DNA of 64,000 bases from a virus, in IMG/VR virus record IMGVR_UViG_3300027741_000025, positions 64,001 to 128,000 of that record, one strand, 5' to 3'. Under the pieces are notes generated by a model. That model worked only from the letters and a program-made list of their open reading frames with translations, was not told where the DNA came from and did not search any database. Positions 20,772 through 47,290 of the stretch are shown here, piece by piece. Every line of letters starts with the position of its first letter. The stretch's first letter is position 1. The translations under genes and the position numbers were made by a program.

Positions 20772-23165
20772 ATGCCCACAAATGTAGTACTATATTCATC
20801 GGATGGAACAAACTGGAATTATGTTCCCACCAATTTCATAGATAATGCCACATCAGGACAAAACATATGGTGTTACGGTGATAATAAATACCTATATCTG
20901 GCATCGGATGGTGGAAGCGGAAATAAAATCTACTACTCTAGTGATTTGTCTACATGGACGAGAATATCTGCAAACAGTCAAGATAATTCAACCCTTGGTG
21001 TCGCAAGTGGAACATTGTGGTCGATCATATATGACGGAAGCAAGTTTATTTGTTTGCTAAGTAACCAAACACCAGCAAATTCTTCGGGTAGTCCTAGTGT
21101 TTTGTCAACCTCAACAGATGGTCTAAGTTGGACGCCAGTTCCTCCTATTATCGCCGGCAGCTCAAATGCACCAAATGGCAATCCATACTATGCTAAACAT
21201 TGTATGAATTTTCGTGGAGTTACCAACATATTGTATAATGGCAGTAGCACCTACATGATAGATGGATCTTTGCGAGAACAATATCAATCTGGCTCTAACT
21301 ATGTTGATGGATCAAACTATTGGAAATGCATAAGTATAGATGGAACTAATTGGACTACCGCTCCTTATGAAAGAGTAATAGTGGGGGCATCATGCTATGG
21401 TGATAATAAGTTCGTAGAAATAGCCTATGACTCAAGTAATGTCTTATCATGTTATATAATAACAGTCAATTATGACGCTACAATAAGCTATACTAAGTAT
21501 TCAAGCCCTTTTTCTTCTTACAATAATACTTGGAACGGCTTCAGCAAACAATACAGCATGGATTATGGAAATGGTAAATTTGTAGCAGTAAGACTATCAA
21601 ACCCAGCAATTATAGCTTATAGTAGTAATGCTATTAATTGGACTGAGGTTAGCATCCCCGTATCTGGTAGTAAAATCTGGAATGGTGTTAAGTTTGGTAA
21701 TGGTATTTTTATTATAAATCAATATGGTGCTGGTGACGACACATATTTATATTCATCGGATGGTATGAATTGGAATGTTGGTCATCACAGCTCACATTCT
21801 TCTTTTTCTCAAGAGGCATCATTTGCCAATGGTCAATTTGTGTTTTTTGCTGAGGACCCCAATACTACTCCTACACCAACGCCGACCAAGACATCTGCAC
21901 CAACACCAACACCAACACCAACCAAGACATCTACACCAACACCAACCAGGACATCTACACCAACACCAACCAGGACATCTACACCAACACCAACCAGGAC
22001 ATCTACACCAACACCAACCAGGACATCTACACCAACACCAACCAAGACATCTACACCAACACCAACACCAACACCAACACCAACACCAACACCAACACCA
22101 ACATCAACATCAACATCTACACCAGGACCGACAGCAACTGCAACTCTCACGCTTGGACCAACTACCCCAACTCTTACCAAGACACCAACTGCTACCCCAA
22201 CTCTTACTAAGACACCAACTGCTACCCCAACTCTTACTAAGACACCAACTACAACTCCAGGACCAACTACTACTCCAACTGCAACGCTAGGACCAACAGC
22301 AACTGCAACTCCTGCTACAACAGAATTTCCTGCAACTAAAATAAGATTTTATACCATGGAGTTGGTTTTAAAAGTTTTTGTAGACCCAAAAATTACATTT
22401 GGAAAGCTAGTTGATTTTAATGATCTTTCTAAAGATGTTGGTTTATATTTTTATAATGGCATAGGAAATAGAAATGTTGATCCAAGCACTTGTATGCCTA
22501 TAAGAGCAGTAGGACAATATTTACAATTTGTTCCAAAGGCTGGTCCTGGTAATACTGCGATGTCTCAGAATGATTACAACCAAATAGTTTTAAAGAGAGA
22601 AGAGACAGAAAAAGTTACTGTGTATTTAAACAAGGTAAAACAATTTGAGTTTTATGATTATGAAAAATACGCAGTAATAGACTCAAATTCTTTATGGTTT
22701 TTCAAAGATGATAATATTACAAATAATGAAGAGTTTAAATATAGAGTCTCTAAGATAGTAATATACCCTGATCCATTATCTGATGAAGAAATCGAGAGTT
22801 TGCCAATATTCCACGGAATTACATCTGATTGTGTGATAGGAACACCAGAACCAACAGCTTCTCCGCTACCAACACCCACACCAGAAGTTTGCATTGTAGA
22901 TATTAGCGATGTCCCAGAAAACCTATATACTTTCAAAGATTGCCCAGACCCAGCAGATTATTGCTATACCACAAGCTTTATTTCTCATTTAACAAATATT
23001 TATTCAACAAATTATTCAAGAGAATGCCGCTCCACAAGCACGGGCGTTGGATACAGAACAGAGTGCTTTTCAACAAGCTTTTCTACAAGCTGCTTTTGCA
23101 CATCCACATCCACATCCACATCAGCATCTCATGGCTTTATAGATATGGTTGATTTTATTCCATGA
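20772..23165 (+). CDS. Modular T/P-stalk protein: beta-propeller, Thr/Pro repeats, LamG-like domain, Cys-rich tail
   Basis: Start moved to MPTNV (TATATA 6 nt upstream). Repeats YGNGKFVAV..YSSDG.NW; C-terminal VTVYLN...VSKIVIYPDPLSDEEI is concanavalin/LamG-like. Confidence 0.7.
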   Translation: MPTNVVLYSSDGTNWNYVPTNFIDNATSGQNIWCYGDNKYLYLASDGGSGNKIYYSSDLSTWTRISANSQDNSTLGVASGTLWSIIYDGSKFICLLSNQTPANSSGSPSVLSTSTDGLSWTPVPPIIAGSSNAPNGNPYYAKHCMNFRGVTNILYNGSSTYMIDGSLREQYQSGSNYVDGSNYWKCISIDGTNWTTAPYERVIVGASCYGDNKFVEIAYDSSNVLSCYIITVNYDATISYTKYSSPFSSYNNTWNGFSKQYSMDYGNGKFVAVRLSNPAIIAYSSNAINWTEVSIPVSGSKIWNGVKFGNGIFIINQYGAGDDTYLYSSDGMNWNVGHHSSHSSFSQEASFANGQFVFFAEDPNTTPTPTPTKTSAPTPTPTPTKTSTPTPTRTSTPTPTRTSTPTPTRTSTPTPTRTSTPTPTKTSTPTPTPTPTPTPTPTPTSTSTSTPGPTATATLTLGPTTPTLTKTPTATPTLTKTPTATPTLTKTPTTTPGPTTTPTATLGPTATATPATTEFPATKIRFYTMELVLKVFVDPKITFGKLVDFNDLSKDVGLYFYNGIGNRNVDPSTCMPIRAVGQYLQFVPKAGPGNTAMSQNDYNQIVLKREETEKVTVYLNKVKQFEFYDYEKYAVIDSNSLWFFKDDNITNNEEFKYRVSKIVIYPDPLSDEEIESLPIFHGITSDCVIGTPEPTASPLPTPTPEVCIVDISDVPENLYTFKDCPDPADYCYTTSFISHLTNIYSTNYSRECRSTSTGVGYRTECFSTSFSTSCFCTSTSTSTSASHGFIDMVDFIP
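21865..22320 (+). repeat. In-frame Thr/Pro tandem repeats (24-bp TRTSTPTP, 6-bp TP, 30-bp [10 protein letters not shown] units)
   Basis: Read directly from the sequence. Confidence 0.9.
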
Positions 23166-23166
23166 T

Positions 23167-25509
23167 TCAAGAAGATAAAATTTTATCTATATAAAAGCCA
23201 GACACATAATCGATTAGTATGTATAAGTAGTCATTCACATAATTAAATTTTAAGTCTATTATTTCACCATCACCGTAGTACAATAACGAAGTATTGGTCA
23301 AAGAAGAATTTATTTTATATAAACTGTTTCCATGAGAAGTATTCCCTGGGGCTCCACAGATATAAACATAACCATTTTGTTCATCGATGTCCATGCTGAT
23401 ATGTTCCACGAAACTATTGGTCGGTTGATTATTCACTAAAGTGATAGAAGATCCAATAGTATTATTGGAATTCACCAGAGTTACTTTTAATGTAATGTGT
23501 CCTGAAGAACTCCAATCATCATTGACTGTAGCAACATATGTCAAATCGTTAGTTGTGTTAGACTTTATAGCTACGATATACTCACCAGAGGGTAGGGTCA
23601 ATGTTTCTATTGCAGAGTTGTTGGATGTATTTATAATATGCACAACATTTGAATAAAAATTGGCTACATACAATTTATTAGAATGGGTGTTGATCTCCAT
23701 AGAACCATTGGGATAAAAATCACCAGATATCGTGGTTAAAATAGAGGTTGTTGTGTAATTTCTAACTACTAATTGATTAAGACCTTCTGCTGTAAATATT
23801 TTATTGTTTACACTATCTAGCGCTGCATTAAATATAGCGTATGTGGGATCACCGTTTATTGTGGCGACAACAGAATCAGACGCTAAATCAATAATGCTGG
23901 CAGTTTTGCTTACATAATTTACAACTATTGCCTTTCTTTGAGTTCTATCCACACTAATAGTTGAGGGTTGAGCGCCAACAGTGATAACATTGCTGACAGA
24001 GTTGGTGTCATTATCAAAAACCCAAACAGTGTTGGTCTCTCCACCAGTACTGCCAGTGTTTAATATATAAAGTTTGTTCGAAGTTGTGTCTAGATCCATT
24101 GCGTCTGGAAATGTCATTCCCAATAAAGTCAGGGATATTGGCGTGGCTGCTGGTGTAGCAGTTGGTGTAGGCGTAACAGTTGGTGTTTTAGTAGGTGTAG
24201 CACTTGGTGTAAGCGTAGATATTGCTGTTGCTGTTAGTGTAAGCGTAGGTGTTGCTGTTTGTGTATGTGTAGGTGTTGGTGTTGCTGTTTGTGTAGGTGT
24301 TGCTGTTTGTGTAGGTGTTGCTGTTTGTGTAGGTGTTGCTGTTTGTGTAGGTGTGGCAGTTAGTGTAGGTGTGGCAGTTAGTGTAGGTGTAGGTGTTGGT
24401 GTTGGTCTCACATCATCACAATCTCTCCAATCAAAATAATTATCAGAATAATATTTGAAGTTTGTTACTAATTCTCCTGCTATACAAGCTGATTGATTTT
24501 TTAAAACATTAACTCTTTTGCCCAATATGGCCACCACAGATCCCCCAATATTGATCCAGTCGTACCCAGATTGCCGCATTACTCCGTCCTTGTAAGCAAC
24601 TAACTCCAAATCAACATTGCCAGATTGTCTTGTGTTATACCAAAATGCTTTCAAAGAGCCGCATATAGAAAAGCTATCACTATTAGAATCTCTTATATTT
24701 TTGATATACATAACAACGGATTCATAGCCAGTACCAACATTATCCCCGCCCCACTCATACCAGGGCAAAGCGGGTGCATCAGGGTATAAACGTTTTTTGC
24801 ACCAACCAACTTCATGTCCCTGTTCAGAACCATAAGAAATTGATGTTCTTGTGTCTAAATCTAATCCATCTAAGAACTTATATCTCACTACTATAAAATC
24901 GGCATCTATAAAACCTACATCTACTATTGGTGTGGCTGTTGGTGGTATAATTGTGGGCGATGGTGTTATCGGGCAGCAAGCACAATTGCATATAGGCTTA
25001 AGTTTTGTGCACTCCACCAGACTCTCAATTGCAAGCTTAAGTCCTGTGCCTTTTTCTACTCTTATAACAACAGCATTGTTGCCATCTACTATATCGCAAG
25101 CATAGTTGTAGTTTTCGTTGTATGGAACAAGATCTTTTGTTCTTTCGTTCCACTCTCTGAGATTATTCTGGAAGTAAAATCTGACGTCTTTGGATATCGG
25201 GCAAGATAATCCACAAAGATCAAAGTGCCCGAATTTATTTGGAATTTGATCGAGAGAGCCAGCACCATAACAATCTTCCCAAGATATAAATATTGTATTA
25301 ACACTAACGCCTTGTGTTGGCTCTGGTGTCGTGAGTGGACAACAAGACATATACTCCAGATTATTCCAGTGTTTAACTCCATCGCCAATTTTCAATTTTC
25401 CCGTGTTTATCTCAAACCCAGGTTCACCCAAAGCTAAAATCGGATTAGCATCATACCACTCTTGAAAAGTTCCATTTCTCAGATGTATTTGCGTGAATGG
25501 CGTTGTCAT
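23167..25509 (-). CDS. Modular fibre-like protein: Mtd_N, Cys-rich module, ADFIV module, T/P stalk, YVTN/YncE beta-propeller
   Basis: [37 protein letters not shown] (Mtd N-terminal-like); LYILN..NTVWVFD...ITVGAQP YVTN repeats. Confidence 0.75.
24965..25509. repeat. Direct repeat copy 1 (~550 bp; copy 2 at ~28872-29428)
   Basis: The first ~180 codons of two genes are near-identical in protein and largely in DNA. Confidence 0.9.
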
Positions 25510-26824: not shown

Positions 26825-29428
26825 TTATGTTAAATAACCTTGTAATTGAATATCACTAATTTTTCCTAAGAAAAAAGTAGTAGAATTAACACCATCAGTA
26901 ACGCCATATCTATTTGAGCTATCTGTAACAGATATCTTATAGTAAAAATAAGAGTCTGGTGATGCTATGGCAAAAGTTGCCGAAGAACCAACTTCAACAA
27001 GGGTTCTGGTATCGAGCAGCGTCCATGAGTTAAATGTATTGGCTCCATATACTTTGAATGAATACTTTACCGGAGCGCCGGTAATGTTATCAAAATCAGC
27101 CCACATTTTATATGATGTTAATATTATTGGATAGTCAAATCCAAGATATCCATCTTTTGTTCTGTTTGTTGGCACCCCATTGGCACTACTTGCGACTTCA
27201 AAACTCCATTGACCTAGCTTAGCTAGATTTCCAGTTAAGCCAAGAATTGTTCCCATATTAAATACAGTACCAAAGGAATCAGAGTTTGTCAAAACACCAG
27301 AATTATTAAGATATTTAACTGTTGGTAATAATGTGTTGTATCCATGCAATGCACAAGGTGTTGTTGTGCTTTCATATCCCCAAAGCTGAATTTCACCAAT
27401 TTGAGTATCATAATTACAGAGACCGAGTGTTGCTGTTGGTGTTGGAGTTTTGGTTGGTGTTAGAGTTTTAGTTGGTGTTGAAGTTTTAGTTGGTGTCGGT
27501 CCAGGCAATCTAGTTGTTGTTGTTGGTGTTGTTGTTGGTGTTGTTGTTGGTGTTGTTGTTGGTGTTGGCGCAAGGGTTTCTGTTGGATCGGGTGTTGAAT
27601 CAGGTGGTGTTGGTCCCAAACATCTATAGCCATTTCTTCCCCCTGTAGAAATAACAAGTTTATATACTTTATAAGCTACAGGCGCCGGTATTGTGAATTC
27701 AGAGTAACTACTCAAACTTGGATCTGTTGATGTTGCATATGGCAATCTTGGTTGATTTGATCTGGTGTCAACTACATTCCAAGATATTTCATCGTTACTA
27801 CCATGCAGCGTCCAAGCTTGCGGAGTTTGATTACCAATATCTACATATCTGCCTTCAACACCATAATTAGCTAAAAATCCATTCCACATTCTATACTTTG
27901 TTACTACAGTTGGAATTCTAAAATCAAACAAAAATATTGGGAAAGAATTATTACTAAAGCTATATGAATCGCTTAACACATATTGAAGAGGAAGTTCACC
28001 ATTAAGAATACAGGCATTGGCGGGATTTACTACAGTATTAAAATACTGTCTGTAGTCAGGATTTATTAATATTGGTGGATTGTATTTTACTCCACCACCA
28101 ACCAACGCCCTAGGCGTGCCAGGCGCTGCTGTTAGCGTTGGTGTTGCTGTTGGACCAGGTGTTTTTGTTACTGTTGGTGTGGGCGTTACTGTTGGTCTGA
28201 GTGTTGCAGTCGGTCTAGGTGTTGCTGTTGGACCCGGCGTTTTGGTTGCCGTCACCGTTGGTGTTGGACCAGGTGTTTTAGTTAATGTTGGTGTTGGACC
28301 AGGTGTTTTAGTTAATGTTGGTGTTGGACCAGGTGTTTTAGTTAATGTTGGTGTTGGACCAGGTGTTTTAGTTAATGTTGGTGTTGCCGTGGGTGTTGCT
28401 GTTGGTCCAAGTGTAGCTGTGGGTGTTGCTGTTGGTCCAAGTGTAGCTGTGGGTGTTGCTGTTGGATAATAACAAACATCTATATTTGCTGTAAATGATC
28501 CGCTATTATCACCTCTTACATTATCGTTTGTTGCAAGGTAAAGTCTACCTGCTCCGACAGCAAAAGATTCAAAAGAAGACCCAGCACAAAACGGTTGACC
28601 GCTTAACCCTATTTTGGCAATAATTGCCTCATGTCTACATGGGCTTATAACATTGTCGATATTGTATAAAGAGTTTGGTAACTGGGCATCCGTTAGTCCA
28701 TCCGGATCAGAATTATAGTTCGGGCTGTTCATGAACGAATTTACTATTCCGGTTGCATTTATTTTTAAGTAACCAGAAACATCAATTTCACTATCTTGCC
28801 AGGGTATAGTAGGATCAATAATAAACGATTTTTGGCAATAAGGAGTTGATGTTGGTGTTGGTGATATTGTGGTAGGACAACAAGAACAATTGCATATAGG
28901 CTTGGGTTTTGTACACTCTACCAAACTATCAATTGCAAGCTTGAGCCCTGTACCTTTTTCTACTCTTATTACAACAGTATTGTTGCCATCTACTATATCG
29001 CAAGCATAGTTGTAGTTTTCGTTGTATGGAACAAGATCTTTTGATCTTTTGTTCCATTCTTCAAGGTTATTTTGGAAGTAAAATCTGACATCTTTTGATA
29101 CCGGGCAAGATAATCCACAAAGATCAAAGTGTCCGAATTTGTTTGGAATTTGATCGAGAGAACCAGCGCCATAGCAATCTTCCCAAGATATAAATATCGT
29201 ATTGACACCTGGTGTTGGCTCTGGCGTTGGCTCTGGCGTTGGCTCTGGCGTTGTGAGCGTACAACAAGACACGTAATCGAGATCGTTCCAACTTTTAGTT
29301 CCATTGCCGATTTTTAATCTTCCTGTGTTTATCTCAAACCCAGGTTCACCCAAAGCTAAAATCGGATTAGCATCATACCACTCTTGAGAAGTTCCATTTC
29401 TTAATTGTATTTGCTTGAATATTGTCAT
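26825..29428 (-). CDS. Modular fibre-like protein: Mtd_N, Cys-rich module, lectin-like module, T/P stalk, two discoidin-like domains
   Basis: N-terminus shared with 23167-25509; C-terminal half paralogous to 25571-26815; WQDSEID...DPDG...GRLYL..ND..DNSG module. Confidence 0.75.
28110..28465 (-). repeat. In-frame T/P repeats incl. 30-bp [10 protein letters not shown] x4
   Basis: Read directly from the sequence. Confidence 0.9.
28872..29428. repeat. Direct repeat copy 2
   Basis: Matches 24965-25509; carries three PEPT units where copy 1 has one. Confidence 0.9.
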
Positions 29429-29442
29429 TATAAATTGTTTGC

Positions 29443-30129
29443 TTAATTGTCAAAAGACTTAAGTTTAGCTTCTACTTGTTTGTGGGCTATTTCAATCTGT
29501 TTATACCTTGTTAATAATCTATCTTTGGCTATTCTATCGTTGGTGGCATCAATTTGAGTTTTAAGTAAGTTTAATTCACCCAACTTTTTATTTAAATCCT
29601 CCATCACATCGACATATTTTAAATCTCTTTCCGAAAGCCAATTGATGGAGAGTTTATCCTTTATTCCATCTTTTAATTCGATGTAAACGAAATCACCTTC
29701 TCTTTTTACAAAGAGTCCTTTTTTTTGTTCTGTTCCTTCTTTGTTTGTCCAAACATGATTCTTTTTTGGCTCAACGTATTTACCTCCACCAAGACTAGAT
29801 CCGGAATCATCAAAAGAAATCGGACCATTTTTATTTTTTTTCATTGCTTGTTTTAAAACTGCAGCAGCACCAAGACCCAAATTAGTCAATAGACCAAAAA
29901 CACTTTCTTCACATTTAAACTCGGGATGCTCAGCTTCTAAATATTCTTTGAATGTTTTTCTTTTTTTGTTTGGTAGCCCTTTATGCTTAGTAGAAGCAAA
30001 ATCTTTTGCATCTTTTTTGTTGATATTATCTGCAACTTTTTTAATTTTTGGACTCAAACATTCGCCTGTTTTTTGACATTTACGAACTAATCCGAAAAAT
30101 CTTTGTTGAGATTTACTTTTACTGGGCAT
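29443..30129 (-). CDS. DUF3008-like basic N-terminus plus SHD1 (SLA1 homology domain 1)-like domain
   Basis: [13 protein letters not shown]...[11 protein letters not shown]; internal [10 protein letters not shown]; [41 protein letters not shown]. Confidence 0.6.
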
Positions 30130-30198
30130 TTGATATCCTTTTATAAATTTAATTACTTAAATATATATAATAACAACACTATTAAATAATGGAACAGC

Positions 30199-30585
30199 AT
30201 GAAATCATTCAAATTATTCTCAGAGAAAAAAGACAACGATCTTGCAAAAAATGATATTCATAAAATAATAGAATATAGCAAAAAATTACAAGAAATCATC
30301 AAAACCAACATAGAATTAGAAGATTGGGTTAAAGCTAAATTAACCCATGCCGAAGACTATCTTAATACAGTATATGATTATTTGATGTTTTATAAGCAAG
30401 ATAATAAAAACGAAAACTCAAAAATGGCTGTGGGAGACCTAAAAAGTATATTGTATAAGGCTATAGAAATAGAAAAGCTTTTAAATAAAAAAGATATAAA
30501 AGATTGGGTTAAGGCTAAATTAAACTTGGCTGGTGAGTATATGGATGATATTTTCCACCACTTAGACTATAATAAAAACAAATGA
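30199..30585 (+). CDS. Hypothetical protein with two tandem DWVKAKL..A..Y repeats
   Basis: LEDWVKAKLTHAEDYL and IKDWVKAKLNLAGEYM; starts MKSFKLFSE. Confidence 0.7.
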   Translation: MKSFKLFSEKKDNDLAKNDIHKIIEYSKKLQEIIKTNIELEDWVKAKLTHAEDYLNTVYDYLMFYKQDNKNENSKMAVGDLKSILYKAIEIEKLLNKKDIKDWVKAKLNLAGEYMDDIFHHLDYNKNK

Positions 30586-31034
30586 AACCAGAAAAAGTAG
30601 TATTTCTTGATATTGACGGTGTTTTAAACACCGATAAGCATTTAAGAAAATTTGGTCGAGATTATATTGACCAAAAATTGACTTCGATACTAAGAACTAT
30701 AGTGCTTCAAACAAAAGCAGAAATAGTACTTAGTTCAACGTGGAGGTTAGATGAGTATGCAAAAAATTTAGTTAAAAAAGCTCTGGAGATCAAAGATTTA
30801 AAGTTTATATGCTGTACACCGCATATTGAAAGCACAACAAAAAAAAGAACACACAGATCAGAAGAAATCAAAAAATGGCTTGAAAAACACAAAAGTGTCA
30901 AAAAATACGCAGTGCTGGACGACAGAGATGACGCAGGCTATGGAATTGAAAAAAGTTTTTTTCAAACAGATCCCAGAGTAGGCTTAACTTATTCAATAGC
31001 AGAAAAAATAGTGAGTCATTTAAATGATGACTAA
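30582..31034 (+). CDS. HAD-family phosphatase (HAD_SAK_2 / RNA-repair type)
   Basis: FLDIDGVLN, IVLSSTWR, YAVLDD. Confidence 0.85.
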   Translation: MKPEKVVFLDIDGVLNTDKHLRKFGRDYIDQKLTSILRTIVLQTKAEIVLSSTWRLDEYAKNLVKKALEIKDLKFICCTPHIESTTKKRTHRSEEIKKWLEKHKSVKKYAVLDDRDDAGYGIEKSFFQTDPRVGLTYSIAEKIVSHLNDD

Positions 31035-32158
31035 AAGCCTATTTTAGGCTTTTCTTCTTTTTTGGAGTAATTTTCTTCTTCGTTGTATATCTCAGCCAAA
31101 GTCATAGGAACATCTGTTTTTCTCTTAGACTTCATGCTTTTAAATATTTTATTGCAATTTTCAGGAGACAGAACATCAAATTCATGCTCTATTAAAAGCC
31201 TGCCTTTTCTCACAAGAGCTGAATCTATTTTTTCTTTGTTTATATTGAACGTTGCGATTATTAAAATATTTAAACAATCTCCAAGAACACCATCAGTTAT
31301 GTTTAATATGTTGCTTATCGCATTGTTATCCTGATTCTCTCTGCTCCTTAAAGCTTTTTCGGCATCCTCCAACAAAAGTATGGAGTTTCTATAGCCCATT
31401 ATAAAGCTTAAAAAATCAGGATTAGTCAGTTGATCGGCAGAGCCAGAAGACAAATAGATTACTTTTCTATCTGTTTTGGTTGTCAAATATTTTATGAAAG
31501 TACTTTTACCAGTACCTGGCTTACCCGATAATAAAACCAAGCCATTTTTATTTTTCTTTGTATAATCAATTATTTTATCAAACTTATCAGAAGCAGATTT
31601 TCCATAATTTAATTCCAGGTCTATTTTTTTATCTGGAAGCTTCACTTCAAACTTTTGTGTTGTAAGCATTCCATCCAAGCTACAAAGCAAATAGACATTT
31701 TTTTTCTTTTTATCTTCTGCCAAGAACTCCATACATTCTTTGACTTTATTTAAGGTTTCTTCTTTTTGATAAAGTATCTTGCAATTATAATTTTTGAAAT
31801 CTTTTTTATTTATATTGACGTTTGATTCAACGTCATCAGCCTCCGACCCATCCAGAAAGAAATCTATTTTGTTAATTAAATCTTTTTTGCGAAAAAATTG
31901 AATTACCAAATCTTCGTATTCATAGCAAGACTCTATATTGTTTATTTTATTTTTTCCATTATCACTTTTTTCTAAATCAAAAGTGAACACCTTGACTGCA
32001 CCTAACTTCTCAAGATTTTTAAAAGTTGCCTCGCCTATATCTGCGATAATTTCAAAAACATAAGGCTGTGCTTGAAATTTTTCACAATAATTATAAAAGA
32101 TATTTAAATAAGTTCCATAATCGTGCGGTGGCGATTTTTTACAGTAACTGTTTTTCAT
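31031..32158 (-). CDS. AAA+ ATPase (BCS1-like)
   Basis: GKPGTGKST Walker A, LLLEDAE Walker B, NILNITDG, ALVRKGR; C-terminal KIGF. Confidence 0.85.
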   Translation of the reverse strand: MKNSYCKKSPPHDYGTYLNIFYNYCEKFQAQPYVFEIIADIGEATFKNLEKLGAVKVFTFDLEKSDNGKNKINNIESCYEYEDLVIQFFRKKDLINKIDFFLDGSEADDVESNVNINKKDFKNYNCKILYQKEETLNKVKECMEFLAEDKKKKNVYLLCSLDGMLTTQKFEVKLPDKKIDLELNYGKSASDKFDKIIDYTKKNKNGLVLLSGKPGTGKSTFIKYLTTKTDRKVIYLSSGSADQLTNPDFLSFIMGYRNSILLLEDAEKALRSRENQDNNAISNILNITDGVLGDCLNILIIATFNINKEKIDSALVRKGRLLIEHEFDVLSPENCNKIFKSMKSKRKTDVPMTLAEIYNEEENYSKKEEKPKIGF

Positions 32159-32182
32159 AATATCCTCGAAAGTTGATCCGAA

Positions 32183-32210
32183 TTATACCAGAAAAATTAT
32201 TCAAAATCCA
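32183..32210 (-). promoter_or_regulatory. Extended -10 promoter for the AAA ATPase
   Basis: Minus strand TGG-TATAAT with a weak -35, then a GAGGA SD before the ATG. Confidence 0.5.
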
Positions 32211-32224
32211 CTAATAATCTCATT

Positions 32225-32258
32225 AAAAAAAAAGTCTGCCTCTTTTAAGGAGGCAGAC
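32225..32258 (-). terminator. Rho-independent terminator
   Basis: Minus strand GTCTGCCTC-CTTAAAA-GAGGCAGAC followed by T9. Confidence 0.85.
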
Positions 32259-32402
32259 CTATTCATACACACAAAGAAAGAGGCAGATGTGTTATGAACT
32301 GCGGACGTTTAGCTCATGGTTAAAGCCGACTACCTTCCGCTGAGTCACCGTTTCTGCTGGACAGACGACAGCAGCAGCACATACACGGTAAGTTTTTATC
32401 AT
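32225..32402 (-). ncRNA. Candidate ~180-nt structured small RNA (alternatively a leaderless 36-aa ORF, 32292-32402)
   Basis: Bounded by a promoter and a terminator; 48% GC over 32292-32402; several stems and a 5-bp loop-loop complementarity. No known family recognised. Confidence 0.5.
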
Positions 32403-32408
32403 CCAACC

Positions 32409-32436
32409 AACATACCACAGAAAGCATCAATGTCAA
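32409..32436 (-). promoter_or_regulatory. Sigma70-type promoter
   Basis: Minus strand TTGACA-16 nt-TATGTT with TG extension. Confidence 0.7.
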
Positions 32437-32469
32437 GTTTCATCTTCGACGCTTGGTACATTTGTACTA

Positions 32470-35328
32470 TTAAATAAAAAATAAATCAAGGTATTCTTTG
32501 AAAGAGACATTTTCATCCATTGCTTTAGCGGCGGCGTTAGCTATAAGCCTGTTGATCTCACTATCAATTTCTTGCATTTTCTTTTGTGCATCAATGATCT
32601 TTTGTATTGTTTCTTCATCAACCTCTTTTTCTTGATATTCTTTTCTGTATCTTTGAATAAGCTCGGCTAACTTTCTCTTTTTCTGAACAATTACAAAAAG
32701 CTCTGTGTCTAAACCCTTAGCTATTGTGTAGGTTATATTTACTGGGTGCTCTGTGTTTATTCGGTAGATTCTTCCCTCGCTTTGTTCAGCAGACTCAGGA
32801 GTCCAGTCAAAATCGTTTATTATCATGTTTTGACTGGCGTTTGGAAAGCTTATTCCAGTTCCGCCCATCTTCATACTCATAACCAAAGCTTTGGCATTTG
32901 GGTCATTGGTAAAAACTTCTTTGACTTTATTTCTTTCCGCTTTTTTGGTTAAAGATAAATAAGTAATAACTTTGAATTTTGGATCAAGATCTTGTAATTT
33001 TTTAGATAGCTTTTCGAATATTTCACTTCCTGCTTTTACAAAGTTTGTAAAGATAACAACTTTGCTGGCTGCGTAATTGTTGGCGGGTTTGTCTAAATTT
33101 CTTTTTATTGTCTCAAAAGCCTTATTGACTGTGTAATCCACCTTCATATTAGCTAAAACTTCTCTACTGGCGATTAATTCACTTATAGCCAAATCTGGAT
33201 CTTTATATCCTTTGAGCTTTTCTTTTAACTTCTTATGAAAATCTTCTTCGTGTATATCAGTTGAAGCAGCATCTATGCTTAAATTTGGCATCTCTCTTAA
33301 ATCTTCTTTGGTGCGCCTCACATAAACGCCAGAGAGATTGAGCCACTTGTTTAGTTTTTCTGCAGCTCTTATTCTGTCCTCAAAACTTCCTTCTGTGTAA
33401 GCCCCTCTATAGCCACCAGGAACCATACCCGCAAAATCTCTTTTGAACTTGCCGTCTTGTATGTCTCCAAGAGGATGTCCGACAATCTTCAATTGATTTT
33501 TTACGTCAGAAGGTCTGTTTGCACTTATTGTTGCGCTTGCGCCCCATTTATACGGAATATTTTTTGTTGCTTCTTCAATGTTTTGACTTCTTTTTGCTGT
33601 TTGGTGTTTTAGCTTGTGTAGTTCATCAAATATAACTATTGAATAGTTAGCGTTCTTGGTTGAATTGATTACATTTTGAAGATTCTTGCCACTTGAGAAA
33701 TTGTCGTAATATAAAACAGTCCAGCGTTTTGGATTTGTGCCATCCTTGGATACGTCAGCGTTTTCTCCAACAACATCTTTGATTTCTTCTACCCATTGAT
33801 TTTGAACTGCCTTTAAAGTTATCACAAGTGTTTTTGAATTAGATCCAACATCTTGCATCCTCAACTCGGCAGCAGAAATCATCTGCACCGTTTTGCCCAC
33901 CCCAGTGGCATCACCAAGTATTGCATGATTTCTTCCATACAAAAAGGCTATGCCATCTTTTTGCTCTTTATAAAGCTCGAATTTAGATTCAGGCAATCTT
34001 GAGTCTATCTTTTCTTTAAAGTCTGCGTCTACTTTTCCTTCTTGATCAGCTCTCTTGACTCCACCATTTTTCAGCTTATTGTCTAATATTGCTCTAAGAT
34101 CTTCAACATGATAGCCAAACCTTTTTAATATTTGCCCAAACGTAGCATACTGTTTGAAATTACCAGAAACTACATAAGAAAAGTTTTTATCATCCCATCT
34201 ATAAGATGGAAATGTGTATTGAATCAACTCCTTTAGAAATGCTTTTTGATCCTGAGAAGCTTCTCTGTATGGAACGCTTATTGTCATAACATCATCAACG
34301 CCGCCTCTTCTATCTGCGAAAGATATTATCGGTTTACTGGTTTTTATTTGCTCTGATTTCTTTTCAAAAGAAATTTCTTTTTGACTCTCCCCAGAGAATA
34401 ATTCATTTTCATCTACAAATTTATCTAAATCGGTAACATCTATTCCGCCACCTACTAATTTACTTTTAACAGCATCGTATAAATCTTTGCTATCTGCTGC
34501 TATCAAAAACTTAGGAGGTCTTGTTGAACCATCAAAACTATACCCTCTTGGAACAAGGCTGGCGCTTCTTGCAGAATCTAATATTGACTTGCTTTGATCA
34601 AAAGAAACATTTAGTTGTATTGCTATTTTTTTACCAAACCTGGTGTCTTGTATTCCGACAACAACCAGCTGTTTCTTTTCAGAAATAGGAGTTTTTTCTT
34701 CAGAGCCAACAGGAGATCCCGAGACCTTGGTTGATATACTCATTTCTCCCGAAATCAGCTTTACAACATCGTCTATCACCTCTGGGTGAATGTAATATGT
34801 ATTTAATTGATTTCTATCTGTGTTAAAAAACTTAAACACAGGATACTTCATCGCACCATAGTTATCCCTCACCTTGACCAGCTTTTTCTTTTCAACAATA
34901 AGATCAGAAATTTTTGTCATTAGCTTTTTACTAATTCCACCTGGAACATAAACTTTAATTTTACCCCAGACTCTTTCTGCATCTGTGTGGATTACTATTT
35001 CTTGATGATCATCCATTTTTAAACTAGATTTGATATCATTTTCCACAGCCTTCTTTATATCTTCATAATTTGAAATTTGTGTATTTTTATAACGAGAAAG
35101 AATGGTAAGCATTCTGCTAGCTGTAGCCAATGGTATTGAATCATTGTGAAAATTAGGATCACCGACAATTGCTTTGTATGCTCCAAAATCTATTTTGTTG
35201 AACCCAGTGAAATCATCTACAACAGGAGCGCCTCTTTCAAACATATCGTGAAACGTAGTTTTTAGTAGATCTATTCCCGGACCCGACACAAGGTTTTCTT
35301 TATTTTCTAAGAATGATGTAAATTTCAT
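32470..35328 (-). CDS. SNF2/SWI2-family helicase with long N-terminal extension
   Basis: GDATGVGKT, IFDELH, SAT, KVVIFTNF, GGTGISF, DFDWTP..AEQSEGRIYRI. Confidence 0.9.
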   Translation of the reverse strand: MKFTSFLENKENLVSGPGIDLLKTTFHDMFERGAPVVDDFTGFNKIDFGAYKAIVGDPNFHNDSIPLATASRMLTILSRYKNTQISNYEDIKKAVENDIKSSLKMDDHQEIVIHTDAERVWGKIKVYVPGGISKKLMTKISDLIVEKKKLVKVRDNYGAMKYPVFKFFNTDRNQLNTYYIHPEVIDDVVKLISGEMSISTKVSGSPVGSEEKTPISEKKQLVVVGIQDTRFGKKIAIQLNVSFDQSKSILDSARSASLVPRGYSFDGSTRPPKFLIAADSKDLYDAVKSKLVGGGIDVTDLDKFVDENELFSGESQKEISFEKKSEQIKTSKPIISFADRRGGVDDVMTISVPYREASQDQKAFLKELIQYTFPSYRWDDKNFSYVVSGNFKQYATFGQILKRFGYHVEDLRAILDNKLKNGGVKRADQEGKVDADFKEKIDSRLPESKFELYKEQKDGIAFLYGRNHAILGDATGVGKTVQMISAAELRMQDVGSNSKTLVITLKAVQNQWVEEIKDVVGENADVSKDGTNPKRWTVLYYDNFSSGKNLQNVINSTKNANYSIVIFDELHKLKHQTAKRSQNIEEATKNIPYKWGASATISANRPSDVKNQLKIVGHPLGDIQDGKFKRDFAGMVPGGYRGAYTEGSFEDRIRAAEKLNKWLNLSGVYVRRTKEDLREMPNLSIDAASTDIHEEDFHKKLKEKLKGYKDPDLAISELIASREVLANMKVDYTVNKAFETIKRNLDKPANNYAASKVVIFTNFVKAGSEIFEKLSKKLQDLDPKFKVITYLSLTKKAERNKVKEVFTNDPNAKALVMSMKMGGTGISFPNASQNMIINDFDWTPESAEQSEGRIYRINTEHPVNITYTIAKGLDTELFVIVQKKRKLAELIQRYRKEYQEKEVDEETIQKIIDAQKKMQEIDSEINRLIANAAAKAMDENVSFKEYLDLFFI

Positions 35329-43411: not shown

Positions 43412-46400
43412 ATGACATCAACAACTCCAATATCCGGTAATTTATTCGTTTGTGGGTATAATCGTACCCACCAACTTGGATTGCCCGATATTTGGAGCTC
43501 CTACTTTAGTTTATTAAAAACCAGTTCTGATCGATGGATAGATGCTGCTGCAGGCGGAACATATTCGATTGCAATCCAAGAAGATGGCACTCTATGGGGA
43601 ACCGGTGGTCTCCCAGGATACTCTGGGACGATTGGATTGGGAAGAACAACAACTGAAAGCTTTACCTTAATCAACACAAAAAAATGGGTTAGTGTGGCTG
43701 CCGGTGTAAACCACACTATTGCTATACATGATGATGGAACACTGTGGGGCACCGGCACTAATGTTAACGGTCAACTTGGCTTGGGAAACACTAATAATGT
43801 TGATGAATTTACAAAAATAAGTAGCGACTCATGGATAGGTGCTGCTTGTGGCGCCACACACACACTTGCTATACGCAGTGACGGAACATTGTGGGTAGCA
43901 GGAGTGGGTTTTGACGGTCAGCTTGGGCTTGGTAACAGTGTTTCTACAACCTTTGGATCATTTGTGCAAATAGGAACAAGCAAGTGGAAAAGTGTGACTG
44001 CAAATTATATGAGGACAGTTGCAATACGCAGTGATGGTACTTTGTGGATCACCGGAGCCGGATTCTCATCAAGGTCATATGACTTTATACAAATCAGTGA
44101 AAATACATGGGATAAAGTTCGTTGTAGCCTAGCTGTAAATCGTGTCGGGTGCGTTTTTGCAATTCGTACCGATGGAACATTGTGGTGTTTTGGAGAAGGC
44201 GGAACTCTAGGTCTGGGTGATTACAACCGCCGCGACTCATTGACGCAAGTTGGTAATAACACATGGAAAGATGTTAGTTGCCACAACAGTCACACCATGG
44301 CAATCAGAAGCGATGGAACACTATGGGCTACAGGAAATAGTTCGAACGGCAAGCTTGGTGCCGGGAGCGTATCTTTAAACCAATATTTAACTTTTATACA
44401 AGTGGGAACTTATCTTGATAATTATTGGTCAAAAGTAGTTACTGGTCCAAATCACACATTGGCGATTTCTCAACTGCCGCCGGCTCCAACACCTCCACCA
44501 ACACCTGAGCCTGATACAGGAACTCCAAAAAATGGTTATTTATTTTCTGTGGGTTTTAGCCGCACAAGCAAATCAATAACTAGTCCGTTTTCAGGACTAG
44601 GTAAAGATACAAACCAGTCTTATCTTTCGCAAATTGGAGCGGATGAGTGGGTAAGCATTTCTAGCGGTTTTGGACACACAGCAGCTATAAAAGCAGACCG
44701 AACACTTTGGACAACTGGTTATAATGAATTTGGACAATTGGGTCTTGGAGATAAAATAAACAGATCTTCTTTTGTTCAAGTTAGCGCAGAATCTTGGTTG
44801 AAAGTGGCGACAGGAAACGCAGCAACATTTGCAATAAGGAATGATGGGACGCTTTGGGCAACTGGCGACAACCGAAATTTTCAACTTGGACTTGGCGATA
44901 ATGAAAATAGGAAGAGTCTTACACAAGTCGGAACAGATTCTTGGGTTGATGTTTCATCTGGCGATGGTCATACAATTGCTATTAAAAGTGATGGAACGCT
45001 TTGGGGGGCAGGATGGAACCAAATGGGGGAATTAAGTCTCACCGACGCAGATGGCAATCCAAAATTATTTTTTCACGCAAGAGTTATGACTAAAATTGGC
45101 AATCAAACATGGAATTATATTTCAGCTGGTGGTAGGTTCATCATAGCAATCAGAAGCGATGGAACATTGTGGGGATCAGGAGCCAATTCTTCAGGACAGC
45201 TTGGGCTTGGATTTAAAGATTTTAGTAAGACGACTTTAACTCAAATCGACAACGGAGTTTGGTCGAAGGTAGCTGCGGGTTTTTACAACACCTTTGCTAT
45301 AAAAAACGATGGAACTCTATGGTGTGCTGGGGGTAATACATTTGGGCAACTCGGACTTGGCGATAAAACAGATCGTGCTCGTTTAACTAAAATTGGAGTT
45401 GATTATTGGAGAGAAGTATATAATTACTGGGTAAACACCTTCGCCATCAAAGCAAATAAAACTCTTTGGATTTCCGGAGACAATAGGCTGGATGCTGACG
45501 GCGACCCTTACGGACTAATTCTAAATGGTGTAGATCGATCTTCTTTCAACCAAGTTGGAGTTGGCTGGACGAAGGTTTCTGGGAACAATAGGTGCATGTT
45601 GGCATTAAAAGAAAACATACCAACACCAACTCCAACTAATACACCGGGACCAACAGCCACACCAACTGCAACAAAATTTAAGATAACACCTACACCAACA
45701 ACTACGCCCACCAAGACACCCGGACCAACAGCTACACCGACCGCTACAGCTACACCAACAAAGACACTTGGACCAACAGCTACACCAACAAAGACACTTG
45801 GACCAACAGCAACACCAACAAAGACACTTGGACCAACAGCTACACCAACAAAGACACTTGGACCAACTCCAACTCCTACTGTTAAAAATATTTCAAAAAC
45901 TGCTCCTCCAACAAGAATTATATTTAAAAATTACACACAATTAGAATGGTATGATTCCAATCCCATATTAGCTGTTGGAGAAGCTGGTTATGAAAATGAT
46001 GCTGGCGGTTTGAAATTTGGCGATGGAGCTAATCGTTGGAGAGAACTTCCTTACAGTTGCCAAAGAGGTGGATGTGTGGTTTCGACGCCAACTAACACTG
46101 CTACACCAACAGCTACACCAACAATAACAGCTACACCAACAATAACAGCTACACCAACAATAACAGCTACACCAACAATAACAGCTACACCAACAATAAC
46201 AGCTACACCAACAATAACAGCTACACCAACACTAACTGCTACACCAACACTAACTGCTACACCAACACTAACACCAACACCAACACTAACTGCTACACCA
46301 ACACTAACTGCTACACCAACACTAACTGCTACAGCCGCAAACGAATACTACTGTGTTAGGTTTAGAACAACACAAACACCTACACTAACCAATACGGCTA

Positions 46401-47290
46401 CTCCTACACCAACTAATACGGCTATAATAACTTCTACGCCTGCAATAACTTCTACGCCTGCAATAACTTCTACGCCTGCAATAACTTCTACTCCAGCACC
46501 AACTCCTGGACCACATGCTGCTGATTTTATAGTAATAAATTATAATTATCCATCTGAGCTAGATTTAAAAACTGATACAATTATCGATTATCCTGATGAA
46601 ATTGGAAGAATAACTGCAGGTTCTTGTCGTATTATATTTGGAGAACCGGATATTAAAAGAGGGCAAATGATCTGGGGTGGGGCACCTGATGATGGAATTG
46701 ATTCTTATCTTATAAATGTTAATAGCATATTTGTCCCCAGTTATACTACATTTACTTTATGTGTTTTCGCTAGGGCATTTTGGTACGCTAATCCGGATCC
46801 CGAAGGATCTTTGATCAGAATAGAACTAACTGCTTATAAGGGTGGAGAAATGAGTAAAGAAGGAACTCATTGGATAAATACTGGCGGAGAAATAATTTCA
46901 AGTGAAGATAAGACATATAAAGTTGACGGACCAGAACAACCCACATGTGATGGTGATTTCCAAAACTTAGTGCATATTAAATATCACGATAATGGTTTTG
47001 GTGCAGGTGCTGGCGTTGCTGACTGGATGGATCCAAAGGATCCACTTAAAACTTGCTATCCTCCTTGTTCCGGGACTTGTACTTATCACTGCGACACAGA
47101 TAATGGAGGAACTTGGCGTCTTTTAAATAGTAATTGTTCTCCTATCAGCTATTGTGATTGTCATCCAACATTAGTGCCTGAATGGGTAACAGAATGCGAT
47201 AATGGATATTGCGAAGCAGGGTACCATGATCTTTGTTATATACCATGTAGTGATGAGTTTGGTGGGCATAGTCCTTGGACAAAACCATAA
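43412..47290 (+). CDS. Modular fibre-like protein: two RCC1/BLIP-II propellers, T/P stalks, internal Mtd_N, ADFIV module, Cys-rich tail
   Basis: Many AI+.DGTLW.TG.N..GQLGLG repeats; [25 protein letters not shown] at ~45940. Confidence 0.85.
45620..46510 (+). repeat. In-frame T/P repeat blocks (30-bp [10 protein letters not shown], 18-bp [12 protein letters not shown], 18-bp AITSTP) flanking the internal Mtd_N
   Basis: Read directly from the sequence. Confidence 0.9.

Follow-up and report, generated by a model that had tools for sequence, protein, structure and literature searches.

Evidence for a new, sporadically carried family of structured non-coding RNAs in megaphages

Among the stand-alone small RNAs of phages and prophages, those which we take to be closest to the RNA described here are the stable RNAs C and D of phage T4, encoded in its tRNA region, and the prophage sRNAs DicF and IpeX. 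Like them, the megaphage RNA is short, non-coding and, by prediction, independently transcribed, with a host-type promoter and an intrinsic terminator, and its copy in one genome (G001 below) lies, as in T4, within a part of the genome with scattered tRNA genes; however, it has no sequence or Rfam relation to any of the four. Huge phages are known for their tRNAs, translation factors and CRISPR systems, and to our knowledge almost nothing has been described of their regulatory RNAs. RsaE/RoxS and the RNAIII hairpins represent the C-rich-loop regulatory RNAs of Gram-positive bacteria, and the megaphage RNA shares with them a C/U-rich hairpin loop, resembling an anti-Shine-Dalgarno sequence, just before the terminator. 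The C-rich motif of RsaE/RoxS and RNAIII is conserved, whereas the loop of the megaphage RNA is variable and its pairing tests were negative. The pRNA of phage phi29 (RF00044) is of similar size, and a loop-loop complementarity is possible in the megaphage RNA too, but the latter gave no Rfam match at E up to 10, belongs to a genome of ~0.5 Mb, and carries complementary 5-mers that can pair intramolecularly in a nested helix.

The window, that is, the whole stretch of 64,000 nucleotides that was analysed, comprises bases 64001-128000 of a 144-kb IMG/VR viral record (G000; 35% GC). The record is a fragment of a megaphage genome of ~0.5 Mb: it was estimated by CheckV as 29% complete, implying a genome of about that size, and its capsid-like protein has a counterpart of 51% identity in the 595-kb 'huge phage' genome LR756511.1. 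A preliminary description, made from the sequence of the window, had proposed on the minus strand a self-contained, undescribed small RNA gene with a promoter, a GC-rich core and an intrinsic terminator, all of which are present there, and the two signals recur in all three homologous copies. The features of the locus are as follows.

32409..32436, minus strand: promoter, with the -35 hexamer TTGACA at 32436-32431, a 16-nt spacer and the TG-extended -10 hexamer TATGTT at 32414-32409
32225..32402, minus strand: predicted non-coding transcript of ~178 nt, scored by the covariance models R1 and R2 at 211 and 182 bits, respectively
32345..32391, minus strand: hairpin 1, in which P1 (32391-32385 with 32351-32345) encloses P2 (32379-32371 with 32362-32355)
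32301..32340, minus strand: hairpin 2, with P3 formed by 32340-32332 (GCGGA..GU) and 32308-32301 (AC.G.UCCGC)
32261..32299, minus strand: hairpin 3 (P5), with arms 32299-32288 and 32273-32261 and the apical loop L5 at 32287-32274
32223..32260, minus strand: intrinsic terminator of 11 pairs (32260-32250 with 32242-32232), a 7-nt loop and a T run of nine T
32294..32317, minus strand: alternative helix, 32317-32311 with 32300-32294, holding UCCGC in its loop
32292..32402, minus strand: 36-codon open reading frame (MIKTYRV...) that opens at the predicted +1 and is not considered a gene

Homologues of the RNA were found by an exact-word pattern scan of viral contigs in the 381-kb record G001 (277535-277771, locus L007) and in G002, whose copy is identical to that of G001 at the RNA locus. 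The third, much more diverged copy lies on the minus strand of G015 (122 kb, 48% GC; L225:1501-1673) and was found with the covariance model R1, built from two sequences, those of the window and G001 (90 bits, E 2e-27). The distinct sequences of the RNA are thereby three only, from the window, G001 and G015. The genomes G000 and G001 have 72 of 157 open reading frames in common, with a median amino-acid identity of 44%, and their best protein-coding DNA alignments reach ~72% identity. The longest non-repeat exact matches between them (38, 28 and 26 nt) all fall inside the RNA, as does another of 20 nt, and matches exceeding these come only from an ACACCA hexamer repeat; in a tblastx comparison of 10.7 kb around the G001 copy with the whole 144-kb G000, the RNA was the sole match. 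The RNA is, therefore, the most conserved unique sequence common to the genome of the window and G001. The ACACCA repeat itself, a long coding repeat of the Pro/Thr type, is located in the window at ~21985-22144 (G000 85985-86144) and in the first 120 bases of G001.

The distribution of the RNA is narrow. The pattern scans of viral, metagenome and genome contigs gave, apart from G001 and G002, chance matches only; no RNA homologue was obtained by blastn of the INPHARED phages and of E. coli genomes, and no match by a protein search with the antisense pseudo-ORF. The covariance-model scans of 15 related fragments detected the RNA in G015 and in none of the other 14 (a weak match in G014 was rejected as a bare terminator), and neither the 595-kb relative LR756511.1 nor 17 loci surrounding homologues of the G001 gene upstream of the RNA yielded it. 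The window, G000, G001 and G002 contain no paralogue or second copy. Since the RNA was undetected in most of the related fragments and loci scanned, it is a rare, sporadically carried gene within the megaphage clade. The flanking genes differ from copy to copy, being SNF2 and AAA in the window, those of a 167-aa protein and a 51-aa ORF in G001, and HD_4 and the gene of a 147-aa protein in G015, so that no neighbour gene is conserved across the three copies; a homologue of the AAA gene exists in G001, 104 kb away from the RNA and with no RNA upstream of it. A close relative, L002, whose helicase is 69% identical, has the SNF2 helicase gene followed directly by a DUF3008-like gene. When window 29443-32470 is compared with L002:6865-7320, the same two genes are seen to be separated in the window by four others, namely those of the RNA and the AAA ATPase and a plus-strand pair, of which one has a HAD_SAK_2 domain of the RNA-repair type, and this region looks like a variable insertion hotspot.

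The window promoter is of the sigma-70 type and is the top promoter-like site in the scanned region 31000-33500, with 10 of 12 matches and the TG present; the transcription start near 32402 is a prediction from it. Early expression, as proposed in the preliminary description, would be suggested by the host-type character of this promoter. Neither promoter-like nor terminator-like sites are enriched over shuffles across the scanned region; the case for function rests, therefore, on conservation, all three homologues possessing both signals. The G001 copy is preceded by TTGACA-N16-TATACT and the G015 copy by TTGACG-N17/18-TATGAA, the promoter overlapping in both genomes the stop codon of the upstream gene, and each of the three copies has its own sigma-70-like promoter and its own terminator. 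The similarity between the window and G001 starts at the -35 hexamer and stops in the T run. Thus, the locus has the layout of a generic trans-acting sRNA gene, a short non-coding unit bounded by a promoter and a Rho-independent terminator. The GC content over 32250-32399 is 0.48-0.50 versus 0.27-0.35 in the flanks, and the 180-nt stretch folds better than its shuffles, with z = -3.1 in the window and z = -4.5 for the G001 copy.

The consensus fold, which is supported by the three sequences, consists of four successive hairpins, P1(P2), P3(P4), P5 and the terminator. Standard pairs occupy 98.6% of the cells of the alignment versus 32-41% with the partners slid by 1-3 columns, the alignment behind these counts being fitted to the model, which favours it, and including three distinct sequences only. 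Both sides have changed in 12 pairs: six of these belong to P5 and three to the terminator, while P1, P2 and P3 have a single one apiece. The stems TTACCGT/ACGGTGA and CTGCTG/CAGCAG of the preliminary description correspond to P1 and P2 and were confirmed; P1 has 7 pairs, 100% of its cells paired and one A:U to G:C compensatory change, whereas the P2 stem is invariant or nearly so, with one compensatory pair counted and a loop that differs in length and sequence in all three copies. P3, which also contains an A:U to G:C compensatory change, closes the invariant internal loops AG/G and AGUC/AA together with P4 (32327-32324 with 32314-32311), the GACT/AGTC stem being invariant in all three copies; P4 is maintained via one-sided changes, its distal part is variable, and in the G001 copy an additional 7-bp hairpin is nested exactly inside it. 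P5 carries compensatory changes in 6 of 12 pairs and has a wholly different sequence in G015, where the layout of lower stem, bulge and upper stem is nevertheless retained, and the terminator shows three compensatory and three one-sided changes across the homologues. Folded alone, the G015 sequence adopts the same architecture as its minimum-energy structure. The G:U pairs in P1, P4, P5 and the terminator fit the minus strand only, since A-C mismatches would take their place on the opposite one, and they point, therefore, to an RNA and not to a DNA element.

The complementarity of GCGGA and TCCGC, noticed earlier as a potential kissing contact, is backed by the compensatory change to GCGGG/CCCGC in G015. 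The covariation thus upholds the pairing; however, it is explained more simply and more stably by the nested helix P3 closing P4, and the data from three sequences fit both the nested and the loop-loop form. The hairpin ATGAGCT/AGTTCAT, proposed at the same time, was likewise upheld as an alternative helix, with 90.5% of its cells paired (29-43% in slid controls) and three compensatory changes, though it takes the 3' strand of P4 and the 5' strand of the lower P5 and is mutually exclusive with both. P4 and the lower P5 stem are present in the minimum-energy fold of all three sequences, and forcing the alternative helix costs 11-20 kcal/mol relative to the nested fold, the 5-bp loop-loop helix not being counted. 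A two-state fold is possible, because the alternative helix covaries yet excludes P4 and the lower P5; two exclusive helices that both covary in the three sequences suggest a conformational switch or a co-transcriptional intermediate.

The conservation is distributed unevenly along the RNA. The first ~100 nt (P1-P4 with the junctions CUCA, GGUAGUC and AAAC) show almost no variation among phages of 35-48% GC, the near-invariant elements being P1, P2, the CUCA junction, P3, the internal loops AG/G and AGUC/AA, the base of P4 and AAAC, whereas in P5 and the terminator the shape is kept and the sequence is not, and the loops of P2, P4 and P5 are free to vary. In a typical base-pairing sRNA the seed is the most conserved part and the remainder drifts. 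The conservation pattern of the megaphage RNA, with its ~100-nt domain invariant where the proteins are only ~45% identical, is the reverse of that and resembles the pattern of RNAs recognised over a whole domain. Conservation of this kind amid ~44% protein identity implies strong selection on nearly every base of the 100-nt domain, a constraint commonly seen in RNAs which bind to a specific protein, a ligand or a cellular machine.

No described family accounts for the RNA. Rfam 15 gave no match over the whole window at gathering thresholds, and local scans of the window and G001 copies at E up to 10 returned only terminator-driven or chance matches of at most 21 bits and no family. ARAGORN finds no tRNA or tmRNA in the window, in agreement with the preliminary description, and lists 11 ordinary tRNAs in G001, with the RNA locus not among them. 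The resemblances to 5S rRNA, SRP RNA and the tRNA D-arm were rejected as shared 6-mers only, expected by chance and accompanied by no model match. The searches of G000, G001, G015 and LR756511.1 for the partners of diversity-generating retroelement (DGR) or retron RNAs (RVT_1) and of Y RNA/YrlA (Ro60, TROVE) gave no match, while the positive controls were detected. Mtd_N, the N-terminal domain of the major tropism determinant, is a hallmark of DGR targets and occurs in three large fibre-like proteins of the window (26825-29428 and 23167-25509 on the minus strand, 43412-47290 on the plus strand); a DGR template was nevertheless rejected, there being no template or variable-repeat copy of the RNA sequence in the window and no reverse transcriptase in the four genomes.

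It is close to certain that the locus is a free-standing RNA gene whose product is a folded RNA of ~180 nt and which encodes no protein. The assignment of the gene to a new non-coding RNA family, carried sporadically among megaphages and without a match in the known families, is well supported, and the original proposal of a self-contained structured phage sRNA gene is borne out by the homologues, the covariation, the lack of an Rfam family and the conservation bounded by promoter and terminator. We consider it probable that this is a free-standing accessory, 'moron'-like gene for a non-coding RNA of ~175-195 nt, which would act in trans via its invariant recognition domain. A more detailed picture, in which a 5' recognition module is combined with the display of L5, is put forward tentatively. 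The RNA would act in trans as RNA; its invariant 5' domain (P1-P4), which by its very invariance suggests a specific binding partner, would serve to recognise a conserved partner, which could be a protein or a part of the host translation/RNA machinery; a variable loop would be exposed on the P5 hairpin, and its conserved, anti-Shine-Dalgarno-like C/U-rich core (CCUC or CUCC) could pair with purine-rich RNA; and the 5' domain may switch between the nested and the loop-loop form. The search by phylogenetic profile for a protein uniquely co-distributed with the RNA yielded none, as the candidates were too many, and no long antisense targets were found in the phage genomes.

It is rather doubtful that P1-P4 forms a new aptamer-like sensor or protein-docking module toggling between the nested and loop-loop folds, within a trans ribo-regulator or decoy directed against conserved host machinery. 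Translation initiation would be the most plausible target of such a decoy, because the P5 loop is anti-Shine-Dalgarno-like. If true, the toggling module would be an RNA-based device of a new class, serving host takeover or counter-defence, and even an ordinary sRNA would still be a well-supported new family for the catalogue. The RNA is short, modular and easily synthesised.

The main rival to the trans-acting RNA is a riboswitch-like role in cis, in which P1-P4 would be the aptamer of a leader (riboswitch or attenuator), the competing helix would belong to its expression platform and the terminator would gate the read-through to the next gene. The RNA has in common with transcriptional riboswitches an invariant multi-helix 5' domain, conserved junctions and internal loops, variable peripheral loops, two competing helices that both covary, and a 3' terminator, and in all three phages a same-strand gene starts 25-70 nt past the T run. 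However, these downstream genes (AAA ATPase, the 51-aa ORF and the gene of the 147-aa protein) are unrelated and form no coherent class, and at least two of them appear to have promoters of their own: the AAA gene in the window is preceded by an extended -10 promoter, as had been noted earlier, though judged by eye, and the G001 gene by a repeated promoter-like phage motif. No known aptamer or Rfam riboswitch is matched either, and no conserved antiterminator was found. The pairing of the P3 domain with the 5' arm of the terminator is not above shuffles (p 0.06-0.2), cross-phage pairs score equally and covariation is lacking; the duplicated TCTGCCTC, tried as an alternative terminator partner, was rejected as window-specific, being kept neither in G001 nor in G015. 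A cis-acting leader is, on this balance, unlikely.

The trans-acting reading may also take a narrower form, in which only the C/U-rich L5 is the working part of a classical base-pairing sRNA, an anti-Shine-Dalgarno mimic that would block host or phage Shine-Dalgarno regions and redirect translation. L5 is a variable loop of 13-20 nt, with the sequences CUGCCUCUUUCUU in the window, UCACCCUCCGUCCUUUCUA in G001 and AAGACUCCUGCAAAAAAAAG in G015, pyrimidine-rich in the first two and C/U-rich, then A-rich, in the third; all three hold at least four bases of CCUCCU (CCUC, CCUCC and CUCCU), for which the chance estimate of ~0.004 is rough and refers to a motif picked after the data were seen. [quoted passage not shown] Yet L5 is no more complementary to phage start regions than to gene interiors, it shows no enrichment over shuffled loops at ribosome-binding regions (own-genome p = 0.63, 0.04 and 0.88 at k=6), and L5 is the most variable part of an RNA whose remainder is invariant, the opposite of the usual conserved seed. 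Such an L5-only mechanism is quite unlikely.

The comparison with the bridge RNAs of IS110 elements is suggested by a length of ~180 nt, several stem-loops, a constant scaffold with variable loops, and the position of one copy beside an IS110-like gene. The latter, 220 nt downstream of the G001 copy (L007:5461-6372), encodes a 303-aa protein with a match to phrog_4285 ('transposase', E 2e-34) and a weak one to Transposase_20 as its sole Pfam domain, DEDD being absent, and this may be a domesticated or truncated IS110-like protein. A scaffold-plus-guide RNA of such a mobile-element enzyme is, however, very improbable: the 144-kb G000 fragment contains no homologue of the G001 protein, none was called within ~1.5 kb on either side of the G015 copy, and the conserved island stops at the terminator. 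Bridge RNAs come from the non-coding end of an element, next to a DEDD/Tnp recombinase, and have programmable, variable internal loops, whereas the adjacency of the megaphage RNA is not conserved, its internal loops are invariant, its variation is in the apical loops, and a comparison of these variable loops with their respective genomes gave nothing notable.

The remaining alternative is a small protein gene, for either a leaderless 36-aa peptide or a dual-function RNA, as proposed in the preliminary description from the ATG at the predicted +1 which opens the 36-codon frame at 32402-32292; both are present in the window and neither is conserved. No ribosome-binding site precedes the frame, and no ATG, GTG or TTG occurs at the corresponding position in G001 and G015. 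From the window to G001 the variable segments, three in number, change in length by -5, +18 and +7 nt, which are not all multiples of three, and such indels break all frames; accordingly, the six-frame comparison revealed no conserved frame on either strand and no coding potential. A 13-codon stretch, PAETVTQRKVVG, is readable in all three copies from different, doubtful starts; its only changes in G015 are V to A and K to A, both non-synonymous and each including one side of a compensatory pair of the RNA, with zero synonymous changes, which indicates selection on bases, not codons. With neither a frame, nor a start, nor codon-like substitutions conserved, and with the pairing conserved instead, a peptide is scarcely credible.

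Several minor observations concern the surroundings of the RNA copies. At 34181-34195 of the window, 1.8 kb upstream and within the SNF2 helicase gene, there is an exact, same-sense copy of the 15 nt with which the predicted RNA begins (GGATGATAAAAACTT; E about 0.03); it could be due to chance or to a small duplication. The repeated motif of G001, TTTGTACCCTAT(AGT), looks like a phage-specific promoter or regulatory motif; it occurs at least nine times at 192-322 kb, on both strands (e.g., L007:5240-5258), one of its sites being right after the RNA terminator, ahead of the next gene. Two related metagenome contigs carry a TnpB-like gene (OrfB_IS605/Cas12f1-like TNB; L250:6526-7695 and L251:6724-7893), placed two genes ahead of their homologue of the gene that lies upstream of the RNA in G001. 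The HD_4 phosphohydrolase, with an HD domain of the RelA/SpoT type, is encoded immediately upstream of the RNA in G015, and several of the scattered tRNA genes of G001 are found in the region around its RNA copy. A WGR-domain ATP-dependent ligase (RNA/DNA ligase) recurs near the RNA region in several relatives; the ligase and HD_4 observations come from L225:3-1040 and 1692-2174 and from L239, L241 and L248.
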